Part shown: piece after piece, positions 3,931-38,984 of the stretch
Layout of the letters: each line of letters opens with the position of its first letter
Position numbering within the stretch: position 1 is the stretch's first letter
From: Welwitschia mirabilis
Lineage: Eukaryota
Direction: 5' to 3'
Length of the DNA: 38,984 nt
NCBI GenBank assembly: GCA_051453625.1
Contig: JBOZIK010000001.1
Coordinates: 49,955,277 to 49,994,260 of the forward strand
The notes under the pieces: model-generated
The model's input: the letters and a program-made list of their open reading frames with translations, nothing else
Database searches by the model: none
What the model was told of the DNA's origin: nothing
Made by a program: the position numbers and the translations under genes

Positions 3931-3938
3931 GATTTTTT

Positions 3939-8619: not shown

Positions 8620-8904
8620 TCATCTTCCTTTGAGGACATCCTTAAAATTTTTATGGAATATTAACAATATTATAACTAGTACACCTCTTTCATCCTAAAA
8701 AAACTTGAGAAAAATATCTAATAATTAAATGAGACTATTAATCAACTCCTTAGTGCCTTTAATTGAAATGAAGAGGAAGATATTCCTACATGCCTTGAAC
8801 CTCATTTGAGAAATCTCAAAATACTAAAAAGAATTAATGATAGTCAATTTGACGATGCTAAAGTCATACCCTTTAGAAATGAAAAGGAAACTAATGAAGA
8901 CCTA
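8620..8904 (+). pseudogene. gag: Athila-type gag C-terminal remnant
   Basis: One frame reads SSSFEDILKIFMEY*QYYN*YTSFILKKLEKNI**LNETINQLLSAFN*NEEEDIPTCLEPH...DDAKVIPFRNEKE. This resembles the Athila gag pattern LEDMLKQFM...IKNLETQIGQLA..LN..E.G.LPSQ.E.NP...AKAITLRSGK. The stops are explicable as C>T in CAA/CAG/CGA. Confidence 0.65.
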
Positions 8905-11449: not shown

Positions 11450-13008
11450 CCATAACATGCAAAGAGTAAAATTTATCTCAAGTATATCAAGATAATATAT
11501 CATATTTAAGATATTAAATTAACTATTGTAATTATAAATACATGTTTTCTATCTTTTCTAATGCCATATTTAAACTTATATATTTCCCATGACTTTTTCA
11601 TGTTTTTTCAACTACATTCTAGAACTTATGCTAAANNNNNNNNNNNNNNNNNNNNNNNNNNNNNNNNNNNNNNNNNNNNNNNNNNNNNNNNNNNNNNNNN
11701 NNNNNNNNNNNNNNNNNNNNNNNNNNNNNNNNNNNTTATCTCAAGTATATCAAGCTAATATATCATATTGAAGACATTAAATTAACTATTGTAATCATAA
11801 GAACATGTCTTCTATCTTTTCTAATGCCATACTTGAACTTATATGTTTTCCATGACTTTTTCATGTTTTTTAACTACATTCTAAAACTTATGCCAAAATA
11901 TGAAGGTTTTCTCACATAAAACATTAGTAGAATGGGTTACTTATGTGGTGGCATTGGTAAATTTTGGAGAATATCTTTCCAACTTACATTGTAGATTCAT
12001 CATGAAGAAATGATCAACTTGCAGTTATGGACCNNNNNNNNNNTACTAAACCAAAATTTTTAATTACCCATAATGACCAATTTTATTATAATAATCCTAA
12101 CTGGGAAAACCTAAAGCATCAAACACTAGCCATAGTTTTCCCTAAAAAAAGGCCAAGTGCCTTGTTTATAAGATCTTAGTGCATTCAACAACACTTAATC
12201 TTAGAGAAAAAAAAAAAACCCTACCATCATGTTCTTCTAGTTTTTCTCCTATGGGAATGGGATAGCCTTGATGCAAGCATGACATTTTATTTACAAGTTT
12301 GATTTTACTTCTTTGATGTAATGTATTATTTTAATTTTGATTAATAAAGATAGTGGCTTTTTTTTTTGATTTCTAGTTATGAATCACTTCACTTTTTTAA
12401 TGGTTGATTGGGATCTACTCATTACCAAGTTATCAATAATTCTGAGTAAATCTTTTTATTCATTTATTACTTGTATAGTGTGATTTTGTTTGATGAATCT
12501 TAGGACTTTTTTCCCTACTTTTCATGCTTATGAATAGGCTATAACAAACTAGAATGATGATGGATCTCACTAACACTCATGTGGTAAATGAGATAACGTC
12601 ATCGTGATTCGAGCTTCATTAAACTTGGTAGATTTATGATGTAAAGTTGGACTTGTAATATATCTTTGAATGAAAATCTCTTATTTTGTGAAAAATTCAT
12701 GTTAGTTCTTAAGTGCTATGTCTATTTTCAAGATCTTATTTAATGAATATTTTCTACTTCTTTATCATTCTTGATTTTAAGTGTTTGATTGAATCTTTTT
12801 ACTAGTTTAGAAGTGTGTGTTTTTACTATTTTTTATCCTTTTTATCCCTATGAAAGAATGACTCTGGGACCTTTTCTATAGTGAAAGTTTTAGATTATTA
12901 TTAGTAAAAGTTAGACTTGAATGCATAATATTTGTGTTGACTAGAATGATCTTGCATTTATCTTTAATTAACACAGGACAAAAGTGTAGCTGAGTTACAC
13001 CTCAAACA
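11450..13008 (+). repeat. 3' LTR of Athila-like element 1 (contains a gap-flanking duplication 11472-11635/11736-11897)
   Basis: Follows the PPT-like aaaggttggttgaggga (11431-11447); collinear with 2638-3930; ends ctcaaaca. Confidence 0.85.
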
Positions 13009-13266
13009 ATTAGATCTACGAAAATGCCAATACTATCATTAGATCTACTAGCATCGCTAGTGTCCTAGGCAAATAGAAATCCATCTCCTCCTTCATAGAG
13101 GTTATCTAGCCTACTAATGACCTACAAAATCATAGTATAAAGGCCAATTATCAACAAATTAAGATTTAGTTAGCAATGATCATAATAAATTCATAAAATC
13201 ATTGTAAATAATTAAATGGTCATGCTAAACTAGTGTGAATTAAATGTCAATTTTTGCATGTTAACA
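13009..13266 (-). mobile_element. 5' end of the older minus-strand Athila-like LTR (continues at 2637 leftwards); duplicated at ~13825-14069
   Basis: The reverse complement starts TGTTAACATGCAAAAATTGACATTTA, matching the family LTR starts tgatagcatgtaaaaatttacattta (2638) and tgtttacatgtaaaaattaacattt (21611). No PPT upstream, so it is a 5' or solo LTR. Confidence 0.7.
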
Positions 13267-15639
13267 AGGAGAGATAATTATATGGGATTTTCTTAATTTA
13301 ATGAAATGCCTCCTCAGAATAGTTTTAGTCCATAAAATATCTTTTCTTACTAAGACTTCTATGCAAGATTTTACACAACCTAAAAATGACCTATATCTAG
13401 AAGTTAGAGCATAGACTAGAAAAGTGATTTTATAGTACTTGAGGATTATGCAAAAAACAATGCTTAAACTTCTTTTCCTTAATTTATATCTCATTTCTAT
13501 TTTTGAGTATTTTTAAATTACTTGTAAAGACTTTATCTTGGGTTATGATAATGTATTTTCTTGTGCAAATAATTTTTTTTATTTCACTTTCTTTATTATC
13601 TTATCACAGGCTTTTAAACTTAAACTTGCTATGTATGTTAGAGGATTTTAAATCTTATTATCAAATTGGTTTAAACATCCATCCCAAATTTGACAAAGTT
13701 TAAGATTTGTCAACACATATTCTTNNNNNNNNNNNNNNNNNNNNNNNNNNNNNNNNNNNNNNNNNNNNNNNNNNNNNNNNNNNNNNNNNNNNNNNNNNNN
13801 NNNNNNNNNNNNNNNNNNNNNNNNACACTATCATTAGATCTACTAGCATCGCTAGTGTCCTAGAAAAATAGAAGTTCATCTCCTTCTACACAGAGGTTCT
13901 TTAGCCTACTAATGACCTACAAAATCATAGTGTGGAGTCCAACTGTTAACAAATTGAAATTTAGTTAGCAATGATCATAATAAATTCATAAAACCATGTA
14001 AATGATCAAATGGTCATGCTAAACTAGTGTTAATTACTTAAATTAAATGTTAATTTTTGCATGTTAACAAGGAGATCTAATTAGATGGAATTTGCTTAAT
14101 TTTATAGGGTTCCTCCTCAGAATAGTTTTACTCCACAAAATACCTTTTTTTGCTGAGACTTCTATGCAAATCTTTAAACAACCTAAACACAACATATATC
14201 TAGAAGTTAGAGCATAGACAAGGAAAGTGGTTTTACAGTACTTGAGGATTATGCAAAAAATAATGCTTAAACTTATTTTTCTTAATTTATATCTCATTTC
14301 TATTTTTTGAGTATTTTTAAATTAATTTTAAAGACTTTATCTTTGATTATTATAATGTATTTCCTTATGCAAATAATTATTTTTTTGTTGCACTTTCTTT
14401 ATTATCTCATCATAGGCTTTTACTCTTAGACTTGATATGTATGTTAGAGGCTTTTAAAGCTTATTATCAAATCATTTTAGACATACACCCCAAATTTGAC
14501 AAAGTTTAAGATTTGAAAATACATATTCTTAATCAAACTTGTCACTCTACTAGTTTATATTTCAAAAAGTCTAGTACTATGCATTTAACTATTGGCTATA
14601 AAATTATTCTAATTACTAATAAACTATTAACTTTATTATGACATAAATATAACTATGGGTATCATTAGCAAGAGAGTGAAAACCTACTTTCCTTAATAAA
14701 AGAAATTAGTAAATATACAAAAAGTGTACATTCCATTATATGAAAAATTATGTGACATATGGAACTAACCATTTGTAATATGATTGTTCTACAAATTTAA
14801 TGGTGGAGACTATTTTAATGCTCTTGTAGTTAGAAAATATTAAAAAAAGTAATTTTCTTAACTTAGGTAACGTTTATTTTGGTACTCAAAATAATATTCT
14901 TGAAATTTGTTCAATTATTTGGCTTTAAATAATCCTTACTATGGGAAACAATCTTAAAAGACTACTTATAAAAGATGGAGGATGAAGAATTTCGGAGTCT
15001 CCTCTTGCATCTTTAAGTTCTTTAAACAAAATATTATACATATTTAATTTATTTTTATTTCTTTAAGTATACAAATTGTAAGCAATAAGCATCAATTAAA
15101 TGCATAGAGGGACATATGTTCTTAATTACTCATCTACATAAAGAAAGTTATTTTTTTAAAGAGATATTTACATGGGATAATTATTTTCTTATTAGTAGCA
15201 TTCTCTCATTCTAAGTAATAGATAAAATGAAGTTTATGTACATATTAGACTCAAACAAATTCTAATAAAGTATTTAAGCATATTCCCATTCAATTTCATT
15301 ACTCACTTAGTTACCCATTAAAATCAACAAATTTCAACAATATTACAGTATTGCAAGTGGAAATTTCAATACATACATGTCAAATATTGAATTTTTTTTA
15401 TTTAGTAGATAAATTGATTTTTTTAAAGATAGTTCATAAGATATCAAGCTATAATTCTTAGGGTGATAAGGTTTCTTAAATGGATGAAACTCTATGAGTG
15501 GCTCTTATTAGCCTTGAAAATAAATAACAAATAACTAAGTCTTAATTTCATAAATTATATGAGACAAATTTCATGGTATTAGTATTAAAATCCATGATCT
15601 TAGAGGGATGGAGGGGGTTTCAGACTTCAAAAAATTATT

Positions 15640-17020
15640 TTATTAAAAGCAAAACATATGAGCCCATATAAGCAAACTATAGATGAAAAAATCCACTAGT
15701 ACATAAGAAAATTATCTAAGAGCAATAATTTAAAAACACTAAAAACCAAAAATAGGAAACAATACAATAATGAAGAAGACTCAAGTCACTATTCCAAAAC
15801 TATATTAACTCCTTCTCATTTAGGTAAAGTTTTTCAATGAACGTTAAGTTGGAAAAGTTGCATTTAATAAGATCTCATATTTATTTTTCATTAAAACATT
15901 AAATTCATGTTTAATAAACTTAAAAATAACTCTATGTCAAAGCTCTTAAATGTTTTATAAACTAAATATTAAAGATAGATCTAGGTAAGAAAAGTAAGAT
16001 GAAAAAGCTTGGAAACATCTCTAGAAATAATATGTACAATGTTTGATTGGAAATTGTCATAATACTTGGAAGTTTAGTTTCATGCATTTTGAGAAATTAT
16101 ACAATGTAAAAAAAAATACTTGAATGAATTCTTGTATTAGAAAATGGAGATTTTAGAGAAGCAAATCCTAAATCCCATAAATAAATACCCATATGCAAGT
16201 GCCAATGATTTAAACACCATAGAAAAGGAAAATACTTGAAAACATTAAACATTTTAAATTTTTTTTACTTCTCTAGTTCAATAAATTAGGAGCCATACAA
16301 ACATTTTATATTTTATTCAGATTCTTATGAATCATTTATTTTTATTAATAATTTCATAAGTGGGTTTTACCTTGAATGAAAAATGAGTCCTTTCATTTGT
16401 TCAATAGATTTAATTCTACTTACTAAATATTATTAACCACTTCAAAGAATTTATTCAATTCCTCTATAAGGCTTTGAAAAGTTTTTTCTTGAGATTTTCT
16501 AGGACTATAATGATTAATTATTTTGTCCTAGTTAACTATCTTCTATGTAAAAGAAGATAAGAAATGATAGTAATTCCTAATTTGCTTTAAGTCAAACAAA
16601 ATCTAGGAAAATGAATAAATTATGTACCTTTATTAAATGTAAACCATTAAGTATTTAATTGTTGAATTATTAATTTTAAAACCTTAATGTACTTTTATTT
16701 TCAATAATCACTAATAAAACTCCAAGCCTTTCAAATTTGTTTAAAGCAAATCATCCTAAAATAGCAATAGCCTTAATGGAGGGAAAAAGTTAAAGAAACC
16801 ATTATTATGCTAGCTACTTAAAACTTTAATTTATATCGATTAACATTGTTTTTAAAAAGAATCTTCCAAGCATCATTACTTTTAAAACATTTTGTTATTC
16901 ATAAAGTGACTCTAGAAAAACCATTTCTACTTTGATTATTGAATTATAGAAAATAAAAAATGATTTTATCTCCTTTTTTTATTTGAAGAATTACTGGAAT
17001 CCTAAGAAGAAGAGTAATTT
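15640..17020 (-). mobile_element. Highly degenerate L1 LINE, 3' part of ORF2 (post-RT region plus zf-RVT zinc finger) and 3' UTR; partly duplicated at 17613-18400
   Basis: Minus-strand motifs in the expected order: LRIPV (~YLGIPL, ~17000), *KIFILGKGD..IYLCSL (~WK...LS.GGR...PIY.MS, in the 18200-18290 copy), MICFK/ERLGV (~VC.PK..GGLG, ~16730-16755), KYKMFVWLLI (~16285-16315), EFIQ..LHCIISQNA* (~ESI.HLFLHC.FS..VW, 16080-16131, 1-nt slip in a T run). AATAAA on the minus strand near 15640. Confidence 0.7.
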
Positions 17021-19021
17021 AGAAAATCTTAGATACTACCCATGCCATAGAATAAACTATCATTTAATAAAATTCACCAACCACCCTCTTCTTCCATTCA
17101 TCTCTAAATTTCTAAGACTTGATACCTGTGGTTGATGGCTCTTAATAAATAAACTATTAATACGTGATCACTTTATTAGAAAAAATTAAGTAGAATTTAA
17201 GTTTACTTGTATTTTTCAAGAAAAGGCTTTAATTTTTCAAGAAAAGGATTTAATTATTTTTTAAGTTATCTTGTGAAGGTTAGTTTCACTTAAGGTTTTT
17301 AAGTTCAGAAAATGTTGTTGAAAGAGGTGAAATCTACTTTTATATTTTATTTCATGTTCTCAAGCATTTTATGGGAATAGGATTTTTCTTGATTAGAAAA
17401 ATGAGTCAATGACCACTTACATGTGAGAAAAAATATAATATCTCTTCTTCAAGAGCACATTTTATTTTGATCAATTAATTAGGTTTAGTTAGCTGCATCG
17501 AGGATATGAACANNNNNNNNNNNNNNNNNNNNNNNNNNNNNNNNNNNNNNNNNNNNNNNNNNNNNNNNNNNNNNNNNNNNNNNNNNNNNNNNNNNNNNNN
17601 NNNNNNNNNNNNTTTATTCAGATTCTCATGAATCATTTATTTTTATTAATGATGTCATAAGTGAGTTTTACCTTGAATAAAAAATGAGTTATTTCATTTG
17701 TTCAATATATTTAGTTCTACTTTCTAAATATTATTATCCACTTCAAAGAATTTATCCAATTCCTCTATAAGGCTTTGGAAAGTTTTTTCTTGAGCTTTTC
17801 TAGGACTATAATGATTAATTACTTTTGTCTAAGTTAACTATCTTCCATGTAAAAGAAAATAAGAAATGGTAGTAATGCCTAATTTACTTTAAGTCAAACA
17901 AATTCTAGGAAAATGAATAACTTATATACTTTATTAAATGTAAGCCATTAAGGATTTAATTGTTGAATTATTAATTTTAAAACCTTAATGTACTTTTAGT
18001 TCCAATAATCACTAATAAAACTCCAAGCATTTTAAATTTGTTTAAAGCAAATCATCCTAAAATAGAAATAGACTTAATAAAGGAAAAAAGCTAAAAGAAA
18101 CCATTATTATGCTAGCTACTTAAAACTTTAACTTGTCTTAATTAACATTTTTTTAAAAAATAATATTTCAAGCATTATTACCTTCAAAACATTTTGTTAT
18201 TCATAAAGAGCATAAATAAATTTCTTATTTATGATAATTAATAACATTAAAATGTAAATCTCCTTTACCCAAGATGAATATTTTTCAAGTGACTCTAGAA
18301 AAACCATTTCTACTTTGATTATTGAATTATAGAAAATAGAAAATGATTTGATTGCCTTTTTTTATTTAAAGAAAAACTAGAATCCTAAGAAGAGTAGTAA
18401 TTTAGGAAATCTTAAATACTTCCCATGCCATAGAATAAACTATCATTTAATAAAAGTCACCAACCACCTTCTTCTTTCATTCATCTCTAAATTTGTAAGA
18501 CTTGATAACTCTAGTTGATGGCTCTTAATGAATAAAGTATTAATAAGTGATCACTTTATTACTACAAATGAGGTAGAATTTAACTTTACTTGTATTTTTC
18601 AAGAAAAGGCTTTGATTAGTTTTTAAGTTATCTTGATAAGATTAGTTTCATTTAAGGTCTTCAAGTTTAAAAAATATTTTTGAAAAGATGGAATTTACTT
18701 TTATATGTTGTTTCATGTTCTTAAGCATTTTATGGGAACAATATTTTTCTTAATTAGAATAATGAGTTAATGACCACTCATATGTGCATAAAAACATATT
18801 AAATATAAGAAGTAGGAATCAAAAGACAAAAAAATATAATATCTCTTCTCCAAGAGTACAATTTATTTTGGTAAATTAATTGGGTTTAGTTAACTGCATC
18901 GAGGCCATGACCGCTTGTTGATAATATAACTCTAATGATTTATTTAAGACATGTTTAATTACATTGGGTCTACAGGTACTGATTAGTAATGCAACATTAA
19001 CTTATTCATGAAACGACATGC

Positions 19022-20607
19022 TTAATTTTATTGGAAGAAGATGTTATAATATTAGATGCTTGATTTTATCTAAATGCTTAAAACAAAAAACATGAATGAT
19101 TGTGAGTAAGGTAAAAATTGGAAAGAAAAAAGGAGGGATATTGAGTTACTTTTATGATTATTTTCTTTTATTTGTNNNNNNNNNNNNNNNNNNNNNNNNN
19201 NNNNNNNNNNNNNNNNNNNNNNNNNNNNNNNNNNNNNNNNNNNNNNNNNNNNNNNNNNNNNNNNNNNNNNNNNNNNNNNNNNNNNNNNNNNNNNNNNNNN
19301 NNNNNNNNNNNNNNNNNNNNNNNNNNNNNNNNNNNNNNNNNNNNNNNNNNNNNNNNNNNNNNNNNNNNNNNNNNNNNNNNNNNNNNNNNNNNNNNNNNNN
19401 NNNNNNNNNNNNNNNNNNNNNNNNNNNNNNNNNNNNNNNNNNNNNNNNNNNNNNNNNNNNNNNNNNNNNNNNNNNNNNNNNNNNNNNNNNNNNNNNNNNN
19501 NNNNNNNNNNNNNNNNNNNNNNNNNNNNNNNNNNNNNNNNNNNNNGGAAAGGAAAAGGGGGAATCTTGAGTTACTTTTATGATTATTTTCTTTCACTTGT
19601 GAACTTGAAAATTTGCTTACTATTAATGTTATTGGAAGAAGATGTTATAACATTAGATGATTGATTTGATCTAAATGCTTAAAACAAAAAACATTAATGA
19701 TTGTAAGAAAGGTAAAAATTGGAAAGGAAAAGGGGGAATCTTGAGTTACTTTTATGATTATTTTCTTTCACTTGTGAACTTGAAAATTTGCTTACTANNN
19801 NNNNNNNNNNNNNNNNNNNNNNNNNNNNNNNNNNNNNNNNNNNNNNNNNNNNNNNNNNNNNNNNNNNNNNNNNNNNNNNNNNNNNNNNNNNNNNNNNNNN
19901 NNNNNNNNNNNNNNNNNNNNNNNNNNNNNNNNNNNNNNNNNNNNNNNNNNNNNNNNNNNNNNNNNNNNNNNNNNNNNNNNNNNNNNNNNNNNNNNNNNNN
20001 NNNNNNNNNNNNNNNNNNNNNNNNNNNNNNNNNNNNNNNNNNNNNNNNNNNNNNNNNNNNNNNNNNNNNNNNNNNNNNNNNNNNNNNNNNNNNNNNNNNN
20101 NNNNNNNNNNNNNNNNNNNNNNNNNNNNNNNNNNNNNNNNNNNNNNNNNNNNNNNNNNNNNNNNNNNNNNNNNNNNNNNNNNNNNNNNNNNNNNNNNNNN
20201 NNNNNNNNNNNNNNNNNNNNNNNNNNNNNNNNNNNNNNNNNNNNNNNNNNNNNNNNNNNNNNNNNNNNNNNNNNNNNNNNNNNNNNNNNNNNNNNNNNNN
20301 NNNNNNNNNNNNNNNNNNNNNNNNNNNNNNNNNNNNNNNNNNNNNNNNNNNNNNNNNNNNNNNNNNNNNNNNNNNNNNNNNNNNNNNNNNNNNNNNNNNN
20401 NNNNNNNNNNNNNNNNNNNNNNNNNNNNNNNNNNNNNNNNNNNNNNNNNNNNNNNNNNNNNNNNNNNNNNNNNNNNNNNNNNNNNNNNNNNNNNNNNNNN
20501 NNNNNNNNNNNNNNNNNNNNNNNNNNNNNNNNNNNNNNAAAGGAGGGATATTGAGTTACTTTTATGATTATTTTCTTTTATTTGTGAACTTAAAAATTTG
20601 CTTACTA
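19022..20607 (+). repeat. 175-bp tandem repeat array, mostly collapsed into N gaps
   Basis: ggaaaggaaaagggggaatcttgag recurs at 19546 and 19721 (period 175). Full unit 19623-19797; partial units 19022-19175, 19546-19622 and 20539-20607. Confidence 0.85.
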
Positions 20608-21610: not shown

Positions 21611-23870
21611 TGTTTACATGTAAAAATTAACATTTCAACCAAGTACATTTGATTAATTTATCAAAGGCAAAGACATTAAAATAGTTTTTATATCATAAAA
21701 TTATGTATTCTACACTTTTTACCATGAATTAAAAATTATTAACTTTACCTTAGCATTTTAAGGTTAATTGATACTTTCTGAAGGACATGTTGCAGTTTGA
21801 AGAAGATCCATCAGAAAACATTTATGTTGTCATTTAGATTACTANNNNNNNNNNNNNNNNNNNNNNNNNNNNNNNNNNNNNNNNNNNNNNNTATATTTAT
21901 GGAAAGTCTATTATATTCTTCTTACGGGCTTACTTTGATGTTAAATTAGAATAAGTTTTCAACTTCGATGACACATGGTAAAAGTGCAAGATAACATATT
22001 TTAATGACATGTGGTCATAATAAGCACAATGACATGGAGGACACATGACATAGTACCTAATGAAAATTGCATCATCATCAAAAGGCCATGTCATCATCTT
22101 TGTGACATATGAAAATAAGGAATTCTCCTTCTAGATACATGAAAAAATTTGCAACTCTTCCTAATGCAATCACCCAATAAGTATAACCCCCTTTATATAA
22201 ATATCCACCAACCACTACAAGAAAATGATTTCTAAGCCTTCCCTCATGTATAAAAGTGTCTTAGGCCCCTAGTGTAGTGAATCTTTATTTGAAAAAATGT
22301 GATGGAAATATTTGAAGTGTTAAGATGTTATGGCTTTCTAAGCACCTTCCTTGGGAGTGGACTTGATTCAAGGCTAGTTTGAGAAGTTTATTTTAACTAC
22401 ATCTTACTCTCTTGATGTAATGTATTTTCTAAATTAAGAGAAGAAATAGTTGTTCATGCTTTTATTTCTAGTGTGCATTAATATAATACTATTAATCCAT
22501 AAGTGAGACTCTTTCTTTTTTACAATATTTTATTAATTGTTCATTTTTTAGTTTCTAATGCATATTAACATGATACTATTAATCCTTAGATGATACTATA
22601 CTACCAAAATTTGTAGGATTATGTGAATTATCTAAAGTTGACTTTTCAGTTGTAGTTACTATTATGTTATAGATCTTAAGTATAATCATGCTTACTTTAA
22701 ATGTTCATAAAGGGCTATGAAGGATCAAAGTGATTATTGAATTAGCCAATACCCAAGTAGTGAATGAAATTATTTCATCATGCTTAAGCCATTATTACTT
22801 GATGATTGAANNNTATAACTACCTTTATATAACTATCCACCAACCACTACAAGCAAATGATTCATAAGCCTTCCCTCATCTATAAAAGTATCTTAGGCCC
22901 TCAGTATAGTGAATCCTTATTTGGAAAAATGTGATGGAAATATTTAAAGTATTAAGATGTCATGGCTTTCTAAGCACCTTCCTTGGGAGTGGACTTGATT
23001 TAAGGCTAGTTTGATAAGTTTATTTTAACATCTTACTCTCTTGATGTAATGTATTTTCTAAATTAATACAAGAAATAGTTGTTCATGCTTTTATTTCTAG
23101 TGTGCATTAATATGGTACTATTAATTCATAAGTGATACTCTTTCTTCTTGATAATATTTTAGTAATTGTTCATTCTTTGATTTCTAATGCATATTAACAT
23201 GATACTATTCATCCTTAGGTGAGATTATACTACCAATATCTATAGGATTAAGTGAATTATCTAAAGTTGACTTTGTAGTTGTAGTCACTATTATGTTATT
23301 GATCTTAAGGATAATCATACTTACTTTTAATCTTCATAAAGGGCTATGAAGGATCAAAGTGATTATTGAATTCACCAATACCCAGGAAGTGAATGAGATT
23401 ATTTTATCATACTCAAGCCAACATTACTTGATGATTTAAAGTTNNNNNNNNNNNNNNNNNNNNNNNNNNNNNNNNNNNNNNNNNNNNNNNNNNNNNNNNN
23501 NNNNNNNNNNNNNNNNNNNNNNNNNNNNNNNNNNNNNNNNNNNTTTAAAGTTTATATTTCAAGAATTATAAGAATCATAAGAGTTAAAAGGAGTTATTAG
23601 AAAAATCAAGCTAGACCTCTAAAGCATGTTCATCTGCATATGCACCAACCTTAGTTTAAAAAAAAAATCTCAAATCTTTGGATTTTTCTTTTGTTTAATT
23701 TCACTACAAGCTAGAAATTCTTATGTTACTTTTAATTAGTTTATCACAAATATCATTATGGAAGAATGATACTATGTCCTTACTACTTTATTTGATGTTT
23801 GCCTTTTACTACAATGAATAAGGTTATTTCATAGTTAATAACTACTGAGGGGTCTTACATAAAATGTTTT
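21611..23870 (+). repeat. 3' LTR of Athila-like element 2 (contains a ~630-bp duplication 22182-22810/22814-23441)
   Basis: TGTTTACATGTAAAAATT start after a PPT relic; shares blocks such as ttgatgtaatgtatt and gaatga.act with the element 1 LTRs; exact 3' end unclear. Confidence 0.65.
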
Positions 23871-27529: not shown

Positions 27530-29121
27530 TATTAATAAATATAATTTTGATTATTCCACTTGTTAAATATTTTATATTAATATGTAGATAGGTCAGTATC
27601 AAAAGGATCAGATATTAATTGGCCTTAGATCATGATGGATGTTCAAAAACAACATCTCACAAAAAGGATTAATTAATAAAATACAAAATTAATTATTTAA
27701 AAACATTTGGGAAATTGAAGACATATTAATTAAAAAAATCTAGAAAATTAAAGACATCTCAAATGTACTTGAAATCAAGTCACAGACTAAAATATGACTA
27801 CCATATTCAAGATAATTGAGCTGAAAGTTGAACCTGACATAAATAAAGATGTTTGCATATTTAAAGATGTCTATACTGAGATGAAATAGGTAACAAAGTT
27901 AGTTTTAATTTTAACTAATATCTTGTATTTCAAATAAGCTATGAAATTGTACATCACGAATTCATGATTATGGAGATCTAAAGATACTATAAAGCCAAAT
28001 TCATTAAAATTTGGATAAGATGACTAAAGATGTCTACAAGATGAAGACATCTAGTTATAAATAGGCATCTATGAAAGTAAAGACATCTTGAATCAGATTT
28101 CACATTGATTAAAACTAAAATTATGTGCTTGATGCCTAGAAGTTGCTTATCCATTACATGATGATTACAAAATTAAACGACTACCTTTTAAGCTTAAACA
28201 ANNNNNNNNNNNNNNNNNNNNNNNNNNNNNNNNNNNNNNNNNNNNNNNNNNNNNNNNNNNNNNNNNNNNNNNNNNNNNNNNNNNNNNNNNNNNNNNNNNN
28301 NAGATCTTTTTAAATTGTATAAAAGCTTGATAACATGAAAAAAATAAAAAATGTTTAGCATTACAATGAATACTCAGCTTCTAAATCTTGGCATACAATA
28401 ATCAAATAAAAAATAAAGAACACACAAGTATAATAAACTTCTCATGAAGAATCAAAGGCATCATTTACAAGGAGCTTGTATTGCTTTCATAATTTGATCT
28501 TGGATCTACATTGCTATTATCTTCATTTATATCATGATGTAATAATAATATCAAGGCCCTTCAATATTCATCAAAAAAATATATTCAGACTTATTATTAT
28601 ATTGTACTTTTAGTTTTACATTATTGACTATCTTATTATTGAATATTGTTGTAAGTCTATTCTTGAATATCAAATACTTTATAAGGCAAATCTTGTAGGG
28701 GTGTGCATTTGATATTGTATTTTTAGCTACTTATTTAATGTAGGATCATTGATGAGCCAAAAAACCATTATTTCCTTGTAAGAAAGAGAGTGCTACCTTG
28801 TAAGGAGACTCTTCGATATTATAAAGGTTCATGGTGTGCCTATGAAAACTAGTATTTTCTTGAGGGGGAGAGAGTGCTATCTTATGAAGAGACTCCCATT
28901 TATTGAAAGGTTGATGATACATTAAAAAATCACTATTTTCTTATACATCAAGAATATCCAGAGGTGGGATTAAAAGCTACCCTCTACATGTGGATGTACC
29001 AAGTTTGGGAAACCACGTTATTTTGTAAGGTGTTTTTATTATACATTTTTATTCTGATATTGATTTAATATTTATATGATGGAACTCATTTACCCCTCCC
29101 TTATAAGTTCAATGATCCTTA
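27530..29121 (+). repeat. 5' LTR of the SIRE element
   Basis: Collinear with 33789-35126 (ttaataaatataattttgattattccact vs ttgataaatctagttttgatgattccact); ends just before the PBS; contains ~82-bp internal repeats at 28762-28942. Confidence 0.85.
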
Positions 29122-29123
29122 AG

Positions 29124-29135
29124 TGGTATCAGGGA
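29124..29135 (+). promoter_or_regulatory. Primer-binding site for initiator tRNA-Met
   Basis: TGGTATCAGGGA versus the consensus TGGTATCAGAGC. Confidence 0.85.
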
Positions 29136-29173
29136 AGGTACTCACAAAAATGATTAACTTTCTTAAGTACACA

Positions 29174-32100
29174 ATGGAAGGGGTGCCATCTATTAGACCT
29201 CTCTTCTTCAAATGGATAGACTACACCTATAGAAAGATGAGGATACAAATGTTCTTACATTTTTTTGAGTTTTAGATTTAGAGAAATGAAAATGAAGGAT
29301 ACATAGAAATCACAATAGGTACTAAAAAAATAAAATGAATAAACTTATCCTACTTTCATGGCCGTGACACTTTCTTAAGAAGAAAAAGCTGAGATAAGAG
29401 AAGAAGATGAATAAGATAGTGAAGACAACAAAGGTTTGAATCTTTAAGAAAGAGATGAACTAATTTTTGAAGAGTGTATTAAACTAGAAAAGTATGTATT
29501 AAGATGAAAAATTTACTTCATATTCATGAATAATCCTATGAATAAGAAAATAATATTAGCAATAAATTATCTTCAGAAAACTCAGCTCTTAAAATTAAGG
29601 ATAGTAAACTAACATGTGAATTAAAGTTTATAAGATAGGAACTATTTGATTCAAGAATGATTAATGAAAAATTCACCCAAGAAAAGAAGACATTAAATAT
29701 CATGCTTGGATAATGTAGATGATCAAATGACAAAAGTGGCATGAGACATAGTAAAGCTACAATAAGTACTTTAGCCTTCTTATTTGACAAATGGAACTAA
29801 AACCCAAGATTATTATCTATTATTATTATCATAATAGAGGTCATTATCAATGAATTAGAACTTGGAGTAGTGAAGAAGCATGCATGATGTGTTGACATTA
29901 GATGCTCTAGGAGATAAATCAAGAAAAATTTGGGTACTAAATCCAAAATTAACTCTTTTAGCTCAAATAGCACTTGGAGTAGTGAAGAGACATGCATGGT
30001 ATGTTGACATTAGATGCCCTAGATACATGACTAAAGGCAAATCAAGAAAAATTTGGGTACCAAAATCAAAAGCNNNNNNNNNNCATGGTATGCTGAAATG
30101 AGATGCTCTAAACACATGACTAGAGATAAATCTAGCTTCACCACCTTAGTGGAAGAAGCTAAAAGAGTTTTAACTTTTAGAGATAACACAAAAGAATCAA
30201 TCAAAGGCATTAGTATCATTGGAGGAGGTAATTTAATATAGGTAAAAGATGTATTCTTTAGAAGCTTTGAAACATAATCTTTTAAGTGTAAGTTAACTCT
30301 ATGATGTAAAGTTTTTTGTTATGTTTACAAAAAATGGTTGTGATATAAGAGAATAAAATACTACCAAAATCTTATTTTTTGGTGTAAGGAAATTAAATTT
30401 TCATATCATCACCTTGCAAGATATATATAATAATGGAATCAAGTGTTTTATTAGCAAAATAGATGAACTATAGCTATGGCATAGGAAGATTGATTCTATA
30501 AATAAATATATTTTCAAAATATTATCTATAAAGGAAAGGATAAGAGGACTTTCTAAGTTTAAAAGCATTGATAATTAGATTGTAAAGCTTGTTAAAAAGA
30601 AAAGTAGTCAAAGGTAAATTTTGATAAGAAAAATATTATTTCTATTGAATGTTCATTAGATCTCTTACATTTAGACATTATTGATTCTTCATCTATAGAA
30701 ATCTTAGATAAAAAAGATATTACTTAATACTTGTAGATGATTTTTCTTGTTTTACATGGATAGCCTTCCTTGCTTATAAGGATGAATCCTTGAATACCAT
30801 TTCTAAGTTGTCCATCAGGTTATAAAACTAAAAGGGATATAGGATTAAAATGATAAGAATTGATAATGGGATCAAATTTAAAAATGCAAAATTTAGAGAA
30901 TTTAAATGGAGTGATTAAAGGAAAGAATAGAATTCTCAACAAAATTAGTAGGATAATGATGCATGATAAAAATGTACCAGATCATTTTTGGGTAAAAGCA
31001 GATAATATAGCATGCTATGTTTCTAATAAAGTTTTGGTAAGAAGATTCACTTTAGAGACTTCATATGAGTTATGGTCAGGTAGAAAAATTTTTTCAATTA
31101 CTTTTATATCTTTAAATTAAAATTCTTAATTTTAAATGAAAAGGATAAGTTAAAGAAGTTTAATTCAAAAGTTAATGAAGGAATTTTTCTAGAATATTTT
31201 ATAGTCAATAAGGCTTATAAGATGTACAATAATAAAACCTATGTAGTTGGGTAAACTATAAATGTTAAAATAAATAATATTGAGTTAACTCCTATAAATG
31301 TGAAAGAGGATTATACTCCTATGTAGATCCTCTAGACATTTTTAAATTTAATCTCATGGTGATAAAGAAAAAGAAGAAGAAATAGAAAATCAAAATCCAT
31401 CAATCATGATCAAAATAAAAAAGAGTTACTCTATTAGAAACATTATAAGAAGTCCTTATAGAGGCATTCAAACTAGAAGTCATATTAGAGACTTTTATAG
31501 CTATACAACTTATGTCTCTCAACTTGAACCTAAAACTTTCAAAGAAACTAAAAGTAATGAAAATTAGATGGTTTCTATGCAAGAATAGCTTAATCAATTT
31601 GAAAGATGCAATGTTTAAGAGCTTACTCCAAGATCTTCTAATAGATCAGTCATTGGCACCAAGTGGGTTTTCAAAAATAAAATAGATGAACATGGCAATG
31701 TTATTAAAAACAAAGAAAGATTAGTGACAAAAAGTTACAATCAATAAGTAGAAATTAACTTTGAAGAAACCTTTGCTCCTATGGATCATATGGAATTAAT
31801 AAGAATGCTTATAGCCTTTGTGTGCATGATAGGTTCAAATTTTATCAAATGGATGTCAAAAGTGATTTTATAAATGGAAATATTCAACAAGAAGTATATG
31901 ATAAAAAATCAAATAAATTCATTAACTCATAAAAATCTAATCATGTCTACAAATTAAAGAAGATTTTCTAGGGTCTTAAACAAGCTCTAAGAGCTTGGTA
32001 TGAAAAACTCTTAGGTTATTTAATTGAAAACCATTTTAAAAGAGGTACTTTAGATGTGATATTATTCATTAGAAATAAATATTTTATTATTTTTTAAATT

Positions 32101-32929
32101 TATGTAGATGATATTGTTTTTTGGTGCTACTAATGAATCATCGTATAAGAAATTTGCTAAGATTATGTAGGATGAGTTTTAAATGCATTCCATAAGAGAA
32201 ATAAGCAACTTTTGGGGACTTCAAGTCATGCAACATAAGCAACATACATTTATTTCATAAGCTAAATATGTTAAAAATTATAAGAAGGTGGATCAAAAGC
32301 TATACAGAGTATGACTATTAGTCTATTATATCTTAAAGATAATCGACTTGATATTATGTTAAGTATAGGAATTTTTATACATTATCAAAATAATCCTAGG
32401 AAATCACATCTCATAACTATCAAAAAATGTTTTTATTACTTAAAGAATACTACTAATTGGGGTCTTTGATACTCAAAGCACTCCTCCCTTGATCTAGTAG
32501 GGTATTATGATGTAGATTGGACTCAATGCAAAGATGATAAAATAAGTGTAGCTTTTTGCTTGGATAATGCCTAATTTCTTAGAGTAGTAAAAAAACAAAA
32601 TTCAATCACTCTATTAACAACTAAGGTTAGGTATATTTCCACTATAAGTTATAAAAAATTAAAAGATTTTGATGTTGTAAAACATTGAAAGATTTTGGTC
32701 TTTCCATGGATAGCATTCCTATTTACTGTAATAACAAGAGTGTAATCAATATATCCAAAAATCCTATACAATACTTTAGAACTAAGCACATTTAGATATG
32801 ATATCACTTTCTTAGAGAACATGTTCAAAACAAAAATATTATAATGCAATACATCAGTACAGATGATCAACTTGTAGATGTGTTTACAAAACCTCTAAGT
32901 ACTAAAAGATATGTAAAGTTATGTAGAAA
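29174..32929 (+). pseudogene. gag-pol: Copia gag-pol polyprotein pseudogene (many stops, frameshifts and deletions)
   Basis: gag MEGVPSIRPLFFKWIDYTYRKMRIQMFL; protease WYVDIRCPRYMT (~WYLDSGCSRHMTG); integrase LWHRK, LDLLHLDI, VPDHFWVKADNIACYVSNKVLVR; RT VIGTKWVFKNKIDEHGNVIKNKERLV, QMDVKS, GLKQALRAWYEKL, YVDDI; RNase H ISKNP..RTKHI, DDQLVDVFTKPL. Confidence 0.95.
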
Positions 32930-33447
32930 NNNNNNNNNNNNNNNNNNNNNNNNNNNNNNNNNNNNNNNNNNNNNNNNNNNNATTCTCAACTCCACATTAT
33001 ATTTATCTTATGAACTAAAATAGCAATTACATTTAGTTAGTATAGTTATAGTTAAATTATGTATGTGATATTTATCTTTTTTACACTATGATTGTTATGC
33101 CTACTACAATCATAGATATTTTCAAAAAATCTAGAACTTTTACTATAGATGTCTTCATATTTGTAGACGTCTCTGAGATAGACATCTTAAAGAATTATAG
33201 ACATCTTTATTTATAATGTTACCAAAAAATGATTAGCAAAACATTAGCTAGTACCTCTAAAGACACAAACTCAAGGGAAGTGCCAGACTCCTAAGAAGGC
33301 ATACATGTAGGGGGAGTATTATTCTTGAATCTATATTACTTTTCTATACTATTCAAAAAGGGAAATAAGTTTTTGTGAATTGGTGGCATTAATGGTATTC
33401 AGGGGGGTAAATTTTTATAATGAATAATGCTCTGTTTTTCATGAATG

Positions 33448-33450
<3 letters not shown>

Positions 33451-33478
<28 letters not shown>
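33451..33478. repeat. (TA)n microsatellite running into a gap
   Basis: 14 visible TA units. Confidence 0.95.
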
Positions 33479-33788
33479 NNNNNNNNNNNNNNNNNACATG
33501 ATATATTCTATGCTCTAATGTATTTTTCTTAATAAATTATCAATTATTCTTGTGTCTTTAGCTAAACTTCTTAATTAGATCTTTAACATGTCTTAATATA
33601 TTTTTTTAAGTGATATATCTATGTATCTTTATCTAATTTCAAGTGGTCTTTATCATGCTTTTTCAATATCATTACATACTTTGGTTATATTCATTTATAT
33701 GGATTATAAATGTCTAATTTTAATTGATTAGATGAGATTATACTAATAAGATTTACCAAGTTTTGAACATCATAAAAAACCAGGAGAT

Positions 33789-35126
33789 CATTGATAAATC
33801 TAGTTTTGATGATTCCACTTATCAAATATTTTATGTCAGCATATAGATAGATTAATACCAAAAGCAACAGATATTGATTGATCTTAGACCATGATAGATC
33901 TTTAAAGATAACATCTCATAAAAAGGATTAGTTAATAAAATACAATCAATTATTTGAAGACATCTAGGAAATTAAAGATGTCTTGATTGAATATGTCTAA
34001 AAAATTGAAGATGCCTTAGATGTACTAGAAATCAAGTCACATACTAAAAGATGACTATCATATTTAAGATGATTGAGCTGAATGTTGAAATTGATATAAA
34101 TGAAGAAATCTACATATTTGAAGATGTCCATACTGAGTCAAAATAAGTAATAAATTCAATTTAATTTTTGACTAACATCTTGTATTTTAGGTGATTTATG
34201 AACTTGTACATCACAGATTCATGATTACAAAGGTTTAAGTGTATTATAAAGCCAAATTCATTAAAATATAGATAAGAGGATTGAAGTATTATATAAGGTA
34301 AATATGTTTGATTGTTAGTAGACACCTACAAAAGTAAAGATGTATTAAACCAAAGTTCATGTTAATTAAAATCGAAGTTACAAACCCCACATTTAGATAT
34401 TGCCTATCCATTACATGGTGATTGCAAAGTTAAATGGAAAACTTTTAAGCTCAAATAACTAGATCTTCTTTAACCATATAAAATCCCAACATGATCAAAA
34501 AAAGAAAAAACTTTTGATACTATAATGAATATTTAGCTTCTGAACCTTGGCATACAATAATCATATCAAGAACAAAGAACACATGAGTGTGAGAAACATC
34601 TCATAAAGAATTAAAGGCATAATTTGCAAGGAACTTGAATTACTTTCATCATTTGATTTTGGATCTACATTGTTGTTATATTCATTCATACTTGTGATGA
34701 CAAAAATAATACTAAGTATCTTAAATCTTTATCAAAGCATATTTTCAGGTTTTTTGTTGTATTGTACTTTTGGTTTTACATTGTGGACTATCTTACTATT
34801 GAATATTGTTATAAGTTCATTCTTGAATATTAACCACTTTGTAAGGAAACCATTGTAGGGGTGTGTATTTGAGATTATGCTTTTCAGTACTTATTTGATG
34901 TAAGGTTATTAATGAAGCAGAAAACTATTATTCCCTTATGAGGGAGAGAGTGTGCCTTATGAGAAGACTTTTACTATTGTAAAGGTTTTTGATTTATCTC
35001 TAAAAACCATTATTCCCTTGAGGAGGAGACATTGATGTCTTGCGAGAAGACTCTTATTTATTGTAAGCTTGGTGGTATGCTAGTAAAACACTATTTTCTT
35101 GTAGGTTAAGAATATCTAGAGGTGTG
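33789..35126 (+). repeat. 3' LTR of the SIRE element, truncated by a later insertion
   Basis: Similarity to the 5' LTR stops after aagaatatctagaggtg (cf. 28950-28966); the last ~155 bp of U5 are absent from the window. Confidence 0.85.
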
Positions 35127-35601
35127 TGTTGTGATGTTTATTTTTGCAATCCTTTATGTCTTACTTAATCCTATTAGTTACAAATAGATATATTGTAAAA
35201 TACAATACAATAGTATAGATGGAGTGATCCAAATGTTGTAAATTCATTAAAAAATGAAGAATGAGAATTGATTTTCAAAGAAATATTGTATTATTTTAAA
35301 ATCTAAGAATAATGCAAGAAATAATGTAATGAAACACACTTATGAAAATGCAAATGTAACCTATTCTAGATGAACACCTATCTAATTATCAAATTGACTT
35401 ATTAAGAAGATTGACCTTGTATAACCTAAATTAGTTAGGAAAACTATTACTAACTAAGACTAACTTAATCTATTAAGTAAGTCAAATAGAATGTAATGCA
35501 AGTTAATCTAAAAATGCACTTAAACTAATATCGTTAACCTTAAAAAGTGAAATTTTCACTGAGTTAGATATAATATAAACTATAAGGGATATGTAAAGAA
35601 T
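35127..35601 (-). mobile_element. 3' end of a minus-strand LTR (family of 1867-2241), itself split by the CACTA element and probably resuming at 38883
   Basis: The reverse complement ends aataaacatcacaaca and is collinear with 1867-2241. Confidence 0.55.
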
Positions 35602-35619
35602 TGCTACAAGAAATATGAT

Positions 35620-35850
35620 CTTTTAAGGCATTTCTACAATGCCTTAAAGATATATAACACAAAACGCTTCAAAATCCNNNNNNNNNNNNNNNNNNNNNNT
35701 TTTAAAACATTTCTAAGGCGTTTCGATATAAATGTCTTAAAATTCCTTTTGAGGCATTTTTAAAAGAAATGCCTCACTATAAAAGTGTTTTCAAGGCATT
35801 TAGCTCAAATGCCTTTTTGAGGCATTTATCCAATAAATTCCTTAAAAAGA
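35620..35850. repeat. Left CACTA subterminal repeat cluster
   Basis: ttttaaggcattt, aatgccttaaa, taaggcgttt, gaggcatttt, aaatgcctca, caaggcattt in both orientations. Confidence 0.85.
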
Positions 35851-36397
35851 CATCACATGGAAAAAAAAATTTACAAATCCAGATAATTTTTAGAAGATAA
35901 AATTATAAATCCATTACTAATTTTTAAAGAACAATGTTTATAGTTATTTGTGCATATCAATAACAAACAAGTCATTACTTGTTTCACTTCATTAGAAAAG
36001 CTTATCTCTAACATATTTGCTAGGGCTTTAATACATGATTCAGTAGAAGAAATTGTAGCTTTACCATCTTTAGTACAAATAAGATAATAATAAATTGTAA
36101 GGATTTTCTGTAANNNNNNNNNNNNNNNNNNNNNNNNNNNNNNNNNNNNNNNNNNNNNNNNNNNNNNNNNNNNNNNNNNNNNNNNNNNNNNNNNNNNNNN
36201 NNNNNNNNNNNNNNNNNNNNNNNNNNNNNNNNNNNNNNNNNNNNNNNNNNNNNNNNNNNNNNNNNNNNNNNNNNNNNNNNNNNNNNNNNNNNNNNNNNNN
36301 NNNNNNNNNNNNNNNNNNNNNNNNNNNNNNNNNNNNNNNNNNNNNNNNNNNNNNNNNNNNNNNNNNNNNNNNNNNNNNNNNNNNNNNNNNNNNNNTA

Positions 36398-36664
36398 GAG
36401 CTAGAGAGAGGATCGAAGATCAAATTTATAATGGATTTGTTAAACCTATGTGAAATAAGTGGGGGAAAACTATTAGCATTCAGTCAAGTACTGAGGCCAT
36501 TGGATTGAGCTTTTTAGATTACATGGTAGTACTATCTTAGAGGCAAGGGAATAGAGTAACACTAATTGAATAATTCAAACAAGTCAAAAGTTCTGTTTGC
36601 ATGAATTAAGACCTATGGAGAAGGAATTAACCTTACAATTACTAGCAGAGTGGTTCTTCTAGAT
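36398..36664 (+). pseudogene. DRD1: Captured fragment of a DRD1/CLSY-subfamily SNF2 chromatin remodeller (helicase C-terminal domain); closest recalled match is DRD1/CHR35
   Basis: ELERGSKIKFIMDLLNLCEISGGKLLAFSQVLRPLD / ELFRLHGSTILEARE* / LNNSNKSKVLFA*IKTYGEGINLTITSRVVLLD. Recalled plant DRD1 pattern: [31 protein letters not shown]...EVFVLTG....EQREW...FN.S.[28 protein letters not shown]. Two frameshifts, an internal deletion and stops. The 5' part is hidden in gap 36114-36395. Confidence 0.85.
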
Positions 36665-36669
36665 AATTA

Positions 36670-38075
36670 ATGCCTTGCAAAAGTTTAAATAAGGAACCTG
36701 GTTTCAACATGTTTTATTTTGTTAATCAGATCATCATCATTGGTATTGTAATTAGACGCCAACGTATATGTATGAGGTACCAATAGGACGCGAAGTGAGG
36801 GGGGTGCTACACTATGTTTGAACATCACCATGTTGTCCTTAAGGGTGAAGTGTTGTAAGTGAAAGCCACCAACCTATAGGGTTGCAAATGTAATGAATTC
36901 CTAACAATTTATTTGTCTTTCACCAAACATGAACCTGGGAAGTCTTTTCATTAGAGCCTTCTTCTATGCCTCTGACATGCATTTTTGATGATGATGTTTT
37001 TTTCAACTCGTCTTCTGATGATCAATTGTACCTTTGAAGCTCTATGCATTTCAACTCTGCCAAAATTCATGCGAAAAAATCTATAGAGGATAAATTAGAA
37101 GTCGTGCATGAAAAATGCCATGAAAAACTCATAAAACAACATTTTTGTTGCTTGAATGCCAAGCACATATGCCTTGTATCTTCCTATCAATTTTCTCAGT
37201 GCTAGAATCTGAATGCTGAAAATACTTACTGCTTTTGACATCTTTGGACTCTTGTAGCTCTCTCTCTTTCTCATAAAAGATCTTCTCATGGCATGTGGAC
37301 AACTCATAGAATAGATGGTAAAGGGCGATAGAGGACCTTACCAATGATCCCATTGCCACTGGCTTCACCAGACATATGGTTTTCTTCACCCTCACAAATT
37401 GTAACCTTCCCTCAAATCTTTTGAAACCTGAAGAGTTCACTTTTTATCAGGTCATGAAGCTATTCAATAGAGAATTTGAACTTTCACAGCAGCTTTAGTG
37501 AGGACTCTTTCATCCATGAATATGCTGTTGGACTTTACTTAGTTGTGCCAGGAATCATATCCAAAAGATATGCTAGGGTCAATAAGCTTAGATCTTTTCA
37601 TGATAATCCTAATACTATTGGACTTTCACTTAGCGTTCTTAGCGCCATCTTAGAGGTTACATTTTCCATTGAACTACCATTCAAGGGGTCCATGTCACTA
37701 GCATTTGAAGATAATATGAGCTTAAAGAACTTCATTAGTATATTTCTTAATTGAGTAGAGTTTTCCGACATTTACTAGTATACTTTACAGGGCATGGCGT
37801 TGATGGAAACTATCGACTGCGGCTCTATGAACGTCCTCGATAATGGGACTAATAGTTCGTTTTACCAGCTTTACCCCTTAACCAGAGCTTGTGCCTCCTT
37901 TGGATTTTGCTGTTTCTATAGGGAATTTATTATGTTTGAGAAAATGAGATTAAATCTCATTAAGGATAAGCTTGATCTAGTTTGAAGGTGAAGAAGCATT
38001 ATCTTCAATGAAAGCTTCTTGACGTGATTGCTAATCACATCTTGGTGCATATGATACATTTTTGGTTATTGTCAT
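36670..38075 (-). other. Unidentified GC-richer, coding-like cargo segment of the CACTA element
   Basis: Begins after the splice-acceptor-like tttcattatttgtttag (minus strand, ~38076). Long stop-poor stretches, e.g. KHNKFPIETAKSKGGTSSG*GVKLVKRTISPIIEDVHRAAVDSFHQRH and ORF 37129-37440. Retains CpGs unlike the flanks. No family recognised. Confidence 0.35.
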
Positions 38076-38214
38076 CTAAACAAATAATGAAATTCAGTAA
38101 TTTACAAAGAGGAAAGGTAGCTTAAAAACTTTAAAAACTATAATAAAAAGCTTAGAATTCCTTACAAAGAGTTAATTCATACATATGTTTTTTGGTGAGA
38201 GGGAAGGTTCTTAC

Positions 38215-38425
38215 CAANNNNNNNNNNNNNNNNNNNNNNNNNNNNNNNNNNNNNNNNNNNNNNNNNNNNNNNNNNNNNNNNNNNNNNNNNNNNNNNNNNN
38301 NNNNNNNNNNNNNNNNNTCCTTCATCATGAAAATAGCCACTAAAATGGCTACCCCCTCTACCACGACTATCTCTATTGCCACCATGGTTTCCTCTGAAAC
38401 CTCCTCGTCATCTTGATGGCCTCAT
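38215..38425 (-). pseudogene. GAR1: Captured first coding exon of a GAR1-like gene (H/ACA snoRNP subunit 1, N-terminal RGG domain)
   Basis: From the ATG at 38425: MRPSR*RGGFRGNHGGNRDSRGRGGSHFSGYFHDEG, resembling plant GAR1 MRPPRGGGGFRG...GRGGG..GGGFRDEGPP.EVVE. After the 100-N gap the sequence ttg|gtaag gives a donor site at 38214. An upstream acceptor tttacag| lies at 38451. Confidence 0.7.
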
Positions 38426-38619
38426 TGCCTTTATTAAGCTGAAGCACTATCTGTAAATACATTGTAGGATTTCAAACAGGTTTTTAGTAGGGTTTTTAAC
38501 AGAAGACATGCATTATTTTTTTAACAAAAGAAAAGACACACATTAGGTTTTCAATAGGGTTACATTTCTAACAAAGGAAAATACGAAGATGTGCATTAGT
38601 TTTATTGCATTTTTTTAAG

Positions 38620-38865
38620 TATGATTTTAAGGCATTTGGCTTTTAAACGTCTTATAAAATGGAAAAAAACTTTTTAAAAGCTCAACCTATTTAAGGCGTT
38701 CTTTTCAAAAATGTGGTAAAAATAATTCAAAGAGGGGTTTTAAGGCATTTTTCAATAAAAATGCCTTAAAAGAATTTCTATCAACTCTTTCATGGTGTTT
38801 ATTGAAATAAATGCCTTAAAATACTCTATACTTAAGGCGCTGATTTAAATAAACGCCTTAAAATC
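38620..38865. repeat. Right CACTA subterminal repeat cluster
   Basis: ttttaaggcattt, tttaaggcgtt, aaatgccttaaaa (x2), ttaaggcgc, aaacgccttaaaa. Confidence 0.85.
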
Positions 38866-38984
38866 CTATATTTCTAGTATTGTATTAAAGAAATAAAAGA
38901 GAAACAGAGTTTGTATTAAGTCAACTAGCATTTAAGTTATAAAGTAGCTACACCTCAATGGAGGATGCACAACCCAACACTAAG

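Follow-up and report, generated by a model that had tools for sequence, protein, structure and literature searches.

A decayed DRD1/CLSY-group helicase-C fragment, probably a passenger of a repeated CACTA-like element, in Welwitschia mirabilis

Introduction

A short relic of the helicase-C lobe of an SNF2 ATPase of the DRD1/CLSY group lies in repeated DNA of Welwitschia mirabilis, and we consider it the probable reading that this scrap is passenger DNA of a repeated, non-autonomous CACTA-like (Pack-type) transposon, decayed and inert. Under this scenario, a non-autonomous CACTA-like element would have picked up the helicase-C scrap of a DRD1/CLSY-group gene, or the scrap would have joined such an element; it would then have multiplied with the repeat to tens of copies, and today it would play no role beyond sharing the fate of the surrounding transposon. 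The first-pass annotation of this DNA had gone further and suggested that the element family could feed back on the machinery of RNA-directed DNA methylation (RdDM), with neutral capture as its fallback; we judge the fallback to be the better reading of the two.

The window, that is, the whole stretch of 38,984 nucleotides that was analysed, is AT-rich (about 25% G+C) and interrupted by 24 runs of N, and it looks, from its sequence, like a draft plant scaffold rich in repeats. Here, we report the homology and decay of the SNF2 piece, the limits of the putative element around it and its repetition in the DNA of two organisms, and we weigh the explanations for its presence.

Results

Homology of the piece to the helicase-C lobe of DRD1/CLSY-group ATPases

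36398..36664, + strand: relic of the helicase-C lobe of a DRD1/CLSY-group SNF2 ATPase, matched by phmmer, BLASTP and tblastn; 5' side truncated by an assembly gap
36114..36395: assembly gap of 282 N, immediately upstream of the SNF2 piece

Both peptides quoted in the first-pass annotation are present in the + strand frame that starts at 36398. The 90-residue reading of this frame, with stops written as X, was compared by phmmer with 1,835,955,588 representative proteins and gave 53 matches at E<=1e-3, the best at 9.8e-13. With a CHR35-like protein as reference, 52 of the 53 fall in the ATPase region; the exception, P0024, a metagenome protein matched through a short repeated stretch, looks spurious. 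Each of the 12 top matches that were scanned contains SNF2-rel_dom plus Helicase_C, and the matched stretch lies inside Helicase_C. Among the 30 representatives that were looked up, five clusters are named CHROMATIN REMODELING 35 or 35-like (CHR35, DRD1) and two CLASSY (CLASSY 1 / CLASSY 3-like); two others are generic SNF2 proteins, one labelled 'RAD54' falls inside the DRD1 clade, and the remainder are unnamed.

The reverse search was equally specific to the piece: by tblastn, 13 of 13 DRD1/CLSY-group references match only 36398/36410-36664 (E 2e-12 to 3.6e-7). No other SNF2 piece was found on either strand of the 39-kb window, all tblastn HSPs elsewhere having E>1. The Pfam Helicase_C model gave no match in two frames of the piece, a PDB sequence search with it returned no solved SNF2 structure at E<=10, and a word-index protein homology search missed it. 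Judged by its sequence matches, the piece is real, isolated and a member of the DRD1/CLSY group. The helicase-C identity of DRD1/CLSY type claimed earlier is thus borne out by phmmer, the domain scan, the cluster names and all 13 tblastn references, and the best matches lie within this group and not in another SNF2 subfamily.

Because the homology begins at the first bases after the gap, it may continue for up to about 94 codons into 36114-36395; the sequence before this gap is without SNF2 similarity (Pfam in six frames, tblastn).

DRD1 versus CLSY

The joint label DRD1/CLSY marks the limit of the data, the two types being inseparable on the 84 aligned residues. The tree of 43 rows gives the piece a branch length of 3.6 changes per site and attaches it at a deep, open fork, outside the 34-row DRD1 clade (SH-aLRT 97), although long rows such as this can be wrongly shut out. 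Profiles made from one common alignment scored 66.0 bits for DRD1 of angiosperms, 66.3 for DRD1 of gymnosperms, 70.9 for all DRD1 and 71.5 for CLSY. The tblastn scores lean slightly in the opposite direction, to the DRD1 type, with 58.9-61.6 bits for gymnosperm DRD1-type, 48.1-54.3 for angiosperm DRD1-type and 45.8-50.1 for CLSY-type references.

Two peculiarities were observed among the matched proteins themselves. The CHR35-like P0020, P0092 and P0109 (from Mikania, Tagetes and Helianthus, all Asteraceae) are annotated with FAR1 and AFT DNA-binding domains before the ATPase, which points either to merged gene models or to a fusion, specific to this lineage, with a domain of transposase origin. 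In P0056, a CHR35-like protein of 1527 aa from Tarenaya, the piece matches two places, 433-533 and 1328-1432; this gene model, with its two helicase-C-like regions, inflates the top score of its phmmer cluster.

Reading frame and decay

Six in-frame stops interrupt the 90 codons of 36398-36664 (codons 37, 40, 44, 54, 56 and 69). In the BLASTP alignment with a CHR35-like protein, residues 5-89 of the piece are aligned in one frame with 39/101 identical positions, and the alignment contains one 16-residue gap. Identity to the 13 references is 33-43% (tblastn), and that to 33 relatives, over 84 aligned residues and across both the DRD1 and the CLSY groups, 37-48%. The piece had been described as frameshifted; instead, the entire match runs in one frame, and the damage consists of the six stops and the single 16-residue gap. 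The frame-1 stretch in which a helicase motif might be seen gave no match, and the frameshift reading was dropped.

The scrap aligns to the helicase-C lobe of DRD1 (CHR35) and CLSY1-4, for example at residues 772-872 of a 967-residue CHR35-like protein. Unlike these proteins of roughly 900-1400 residues, it spans only about 90 codons with six stops, is without an SNF2 N-lobe, which is absent from the entire window, and ends at 36664, before the rest of the helicase-C lobe. Such a piece, gapped and interrupted, is not a working gene.

None of the seven variant places listed within the piece falls in a stop codon, 46 further differences existing beyond those listed. At 36611, a common variant replaces Thr by Ala, which most aligned relatives have at this place. 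The piece had probably already decayed when it was multiplied; the variant places fit this order of events and do not prove it.

A putative CACTA-like element around the SNF2 piece

35602..35633, + strand: left terminal inverted repeat, degenerate and CACTA-like, starting TGCTACAAGAAAT
38851..38882, - strand: right terminal inverted repeat, ending ...TTTCTAGTATTG
35602..35860: left subterminal region with AAGGCRTT / AAYGCCTT in both orientations, motifs at 35625, 35638, 35715, 35793 and 35808
38620..38882: right subterminal region with the same motifs, at 38629, 38693, 38742, 38760, 38810 and 38852
36669..36676, + strand: single occurrence of the subterminal motif, AATGCCTT, five bases past the SNF2 homology
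35678..35699 and 38218..38317: further assembly gaps inside the element, of 22 N and 100 N
35597..38882: segment skipped in joined contigs, consisting of the element plus a few flank letters
35599..35601 (left, AAT) and 38883..38885 (right, TAT): possible target-site duplication, two of three letters agreeing

The ends of the CACTA superfamily are defined as 5'-CACTA...TAGTG-3' (PMC4938662). Around the SNF2 piece, an inverted pair of 29 nt (35605-35633 / 38851-38879; 79%) was found, the alignment of which extends to 35602 and 38882. The literal ends, TGCTA... and ...TATTG, are each one or two letters off CACTA...TAGTG. Other copies continue with GTG after 38879 and then diverge (loose ends in 20 records of X1 and 24 of X5, the contig sets of the two organisms compared below), and the right end of the family is therefore ...TAGTAGTG. 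Terminal inverted repeats in the range of 10-54 bp are thus combined with subterminal repeats, as in CACTA elements. The subterminal motif occurs 15 times in the window, and 11 of the 15 occurrences fall within 35625-35808 and 38629-38852. Both subterminal regions are of high copy, the left one reaching a depth of 613-3296 in X1 and the right one, 38620-38882, being likewise abundant by contig depth.

The limits of the element come from contigs that skip it. One contig of X1 and one of X5, hence of two organisms, join 35596 directly to 38883; these contigs are only about 90% alike, have 27 letters on the shorter side, and the X5 contig holds CT at the joint. An additional X5 contig joins 35597 to 38882. 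The joined contigs look, on sequence grounds, like paralogous copies of a high-copy host repeat in which the site is empty, and the 35596-38883 joint therefore sets the limits of the element and assigns both ends to one insertion. The CT at the X5 joint would fit a 3-bp duplication TAT, the left copy of which now reads AAT, and the sequence of the joined contigs is compatible with a single TAT. In many other contigs, the left arm continues directly into the right arm, 2900-3160 bases being left out, so that the family consists predominantly of short end-to-end derivatives.

No transposase domain was detected by Pfam, either in the 133 ORFs of >=45 aa in the window or in the frames of the element read through stops, and the element, if it is a CACTA member, is non-autonomous. 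No second copy of any part of it was found elsewhere in the window.

Three N gaps divide the element, 35602-38882, into four contigs. The SNF2 piece lies on contig 36396-38217, and N gaps intervene between this contig and both ends of the element; no sequencing record among those listed (DNA contigs X1 and X5, RNA reads X14 and X17) spans these gaps. Because the element ends are of very high copy, mis-scaffolding of contig 36396-38217 is possible. The SNF2 piece and the inverted ends appear to form one element, in a join that crosses assembly gaps and rests on the scaffolding. The earlier statement that the fragment lies between CACTA terminal inverted repeats therefore stands in part: the 29-nt, 79% inverted pair, the subterminal motifs and the empty site speak for it, but the ends are not literal CACTA and N gaps intervene.

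Other cargo

The first-pass annotation had further assumed other cargo on the minus strand, to which the SNF2 fragment would be antisense. Such cargo was not found in a Pfam search, one homology search and two PDB searches. When three contigs of the element were read in six frames through stops, Pfam returned only chance-level matches to UME and FH3 (E>0.01); a homology search with the 104-aa minus-strand ORF 37132-37443 gave no match, and PDB searches with 37187-37546(-) and 38318-38425(-) gave nothing relevant. The argument from antisense is therefore not supported by these searches. The idea that the minus-strand stretches are pieces of a gene for an RGG-box nucleolar protein likewise received no support from the PDB and homology searches. 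One captured gene piece, that of the SNF2 ATPase, is confirmed in the element.

Two minus-strand stretches are recorded as such. At 35874-36113 (-), in the left part of the element, there is an open frame of 80 residues in a repeated region (depth 270-450), with the chance-level Pfam scores UME E 0.012 and FH3_FHOD1-3 E 0.014. At 38318-38425 (-), a short, ATG-started reading with one stop is rich in arginine and glycine.

Repetition of the SNF2 piece in two organisms

36670..37488: low-copy interior of the element, depth 0-8

DNA contigs of two organisms (X1 and X5) were aligned to 35500-38984. Over the SNF2 piece (36436-36669), the summed depth is 63-137 in X1 and 49-72 in X5, the contigs that match the window exactly contributing a depth of 2-5. 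Most aligned contigs are 90-95% alike to the window (1717/2302 in X1, 2559/3346 in X5). At place 36494, at least 10 contigs of X1 and at least 7 of X5 are aligned, all with a letter other than that of the window. At a likeness of 90-95%, we estimate the repetition of the piece at about ten- to sixty-fold, the summed depth not being a copy number. Membership in repeated DNA is accordingly supported by the contig depth in X1 and X5.

Depth varies sharply along the element. It is 270-450 over 35851-36084 and falls to 0 (X1) or 4 (X5) from 36670, where the SNF2 homology ends. An exact contig of organism B, 36623-36817, spans this point, and the 36670 junction is therefore real.

Transcripts and folding

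Among the indexed runs, none with RNA is listed as containing the stretch. RNA reads were taken from roughly a quarter each of two runs, X14 and X17, which are cDNA or poly(A) libraries. RNA-seq depth over 35851-38424, which includes the SNF2 piece, is zero in this portion of both runs. Reads were found only at 38467-38497, just upstream of the arginine- and glycine-rich reading (6-15 reads in both runs), where they are partial and carry identical, unlike flanks; because they run into unlike sequence, they derive from a related transcribed locus elsewhere and not from the element. The SNF2 piece folds no better than its shuffles (z +1.28), it has no inverted partner within the element, and Rfam yielded no family match in the whole window.

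The proposed feedback on the silencing machinery found no footing in these results, given the 33-43% identity, the six stops, the lack of a fold and the lack of RNA-seq reads. Given the low protein identity (33-43% by tblastn, 37-48% over the aligned residues), extended perfect matches at the nucleotide level between the piece and a working gene are improbable, although a donor closer than these relatives may exist. Any small RNAs made from the piece would be expected to match its own copies, not a functional gene of the DRD1/CLSY group.

Discussion

Explanations for the repeated SNF2 scrap

Neutral carriage of the scrap by a CACTA-like element has to be weighed against a different origin of the same repeats. 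The scrap might belong to another repeat family or to a nested insert and have come to stand beside the CACTA-like ends through scaffolding or nesting, in which case it was amplified but not captured here. The three N gaps that split the element would permit this, the 100-N gap 38218-38317 having the look of a gap of unknown size; the contig of the scrap is without subterminal motifs save the one at 36669, and the depth is uneven, from 270-450 (35851-36084) through 63-137 (scrap) to 0-8 (36670-37488). However, the flanks are adjacent in paralogous copies (35596 to 38883), so that one insertion fills the space between them, the gap lengths 22 and 282 are probably read-pair estimates, and no other transposon domain lies near the scrap. 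We regard this alternative as unlikely. The scrap could also be the in-place remnant of a DRD1/CLSY-like gene that was broken up by transposon insertions, since the window is full of transposon debris, including a neighbouring old Ty1/copia element, and a gap conceals what lies upstream of the scrap. Yet there is no other SNF2 piece in the 39 kb on both strands, the scrap lies inside a segment that is absent from the paralogous sites, and its 90-95% repeats in at least 10 and at least 7 contigs of two organisms are unlike a single-locus relic; this origin is hardly credible.

A role for the repeats in silencing is the remaining alternative. Transcripts or small RNAs from the tens of copies would then act in trans on the donor remodeller gene, a scheme to which the derivation of the scrap from the RdDM remodeller group, its many copies in two organisms, the precedent of miR820 and OsDRM2 in a rice CACTA element (PMC3459959) and the cross-talk between captures and donors described for maize (bioRxiv 10.1101/777037) lend some appeal. 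Against it stand an identity of only 33-43% by tblastn and 37-48% over 84 residues, the six stops, the missing fold-back (z +1.28), inverted scrap copy and Rfam microRNA, the zero RNA-seq reads on the scrap and the missing minus-strand cargo that the antisense argument needs. We consider such feedback very improbable, and that a CACTA-like family with tens of DRD1/CLSY-derived copies in two related plants actually damps an RdDM remodeller through small RNAs or antisense RNA must be held extremely doubtful. Passenger DNA of a CACTA-like element, decayed and inert, thus remains our preferred reading.

Comparison with known gene-capturing elements

The nearest known counterpart is found in rice, where pre-miR820, located within CACTA elements, is described as resembling OsDRM2 from exon 2 to intron 3 and as targeting OsDRM2 (Nosaka et al. 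2012, PMC3459959). As in rice, a CACTA-type element would here carry a piece of an RdDM-pathway gene that was multiplied along with the element. The rice piece, however, folds back to give a microRNA with a demonstrated target, as that source describes, whereas the scrap studied here has no fold, no RNA-seq reads and heavy decay; furthermore, the rice donor is a methyltransferase gene and the donor here is a remodeller of the DRD1/CLSY group.

Structurally, the element resembles the Pack-CACTA and Pack-TYPE elements (Catoni et al. 2018, PMC6379663; Gisby and Catoni 2022, PMC8903248), as they are characterized there, in being non-autonomous, with inverted ends, without a transposase and, on the present reading, with host gene DNA enclosed. 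According to a model summarised in PMC8616336, neighbouring short elements enclose host DNA between them, and the abundant short end-to-end derivatives seen here fit this model. The present case differs in its degenerate ends, in its single confirmed gene piece and in a contiguity across the gaps that is presumed.

Tgm-Express1, a CACTA element of soybean, mobilises host gene fragments (Zabala and Vodkin 2007, PMC1947982), which, by that account, are transcribed and spliced into chimeric RNAs; none were seen here in two RNA-seq runs. In maize, according to Muyle et al. (bioRxiv 10.1101/777037), the donor gene may likewise be targeted by small RNAs directed against a capturing transposon. That effect is a genome-wide statistical pattern of recent captures, whereas the scrap analysed here is old and far diverged.

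In the literature that was searched, no DRD1 or CLSY fragment is described as captured by a transposon; the supplementary gene lists of the Pack-TYPE and maize capture surveys may contain one. If the scrap is a neutral relic, it adds one more case to the well-described capture and amplification of gene fragments by non-autonomous CACTA-like elements. The find would matter beyond that only if the copies yield small RNAs that still match a working DRD1/CLSY gene, which the heavy decay makes unlikely. Were the feedback nevertheless true, it would be a second independent case of the miR820/OsDRM2 strategy, and transposons would target the silencing pathway at a second point besides rice DRM2, at a different step of RdDM. 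In practical terms, the scrap is liable to mislead gene annotation and to distort counts of the DRD1/CLSY family in this genome.

Other features of the window

The flanks of the CACTA-like element (35100-35601 and 38883-38984) are of very high copy, with a summed contig depth of 1021-19433, and form part of the abundant repeat that received the insertion. The element starts about 650 bases past the 3' repeat of an old Ty1/copia retrotransposon, which occupies 27680-34952 (+). The direct repeats of this retrotransposon (27680-28792 / 33937-34952) are 78-79% alike and are probably its LTRs, and broken matches to Pol_BBD, SH3_retrovirus and RVT_2 lie in its interior at 30086-31929.

Units of about 630 bases, 91-92% alike, are tandemly duplicated between 22182 and 23327. 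Within each unit, at 22213-22473 and 22845-23102, a stretch of 261 bases is bounded by clean CACTA-type ends (CACTACAAG... to ...TTTCTAGTG); both stretches are without the subterminal motif of the 35602-38882 element.

A C/T-rich, low-complexity stretch with a G+C skew of -0.6 was noted at 5507-5962 (+), where long open frames without a family match run in three + frames. Three further pairs of direct repeats were observed: 3211-3930 / 12286-13008 at a spacing of about 9075 bases, 13032-13504 / 13827-14307 at about 800 bases and 16312-17195 / 17613-18578 at about 1300-1380 bases. The members of these pairs are 79-93% alike and are probably other repeats or local duplications.
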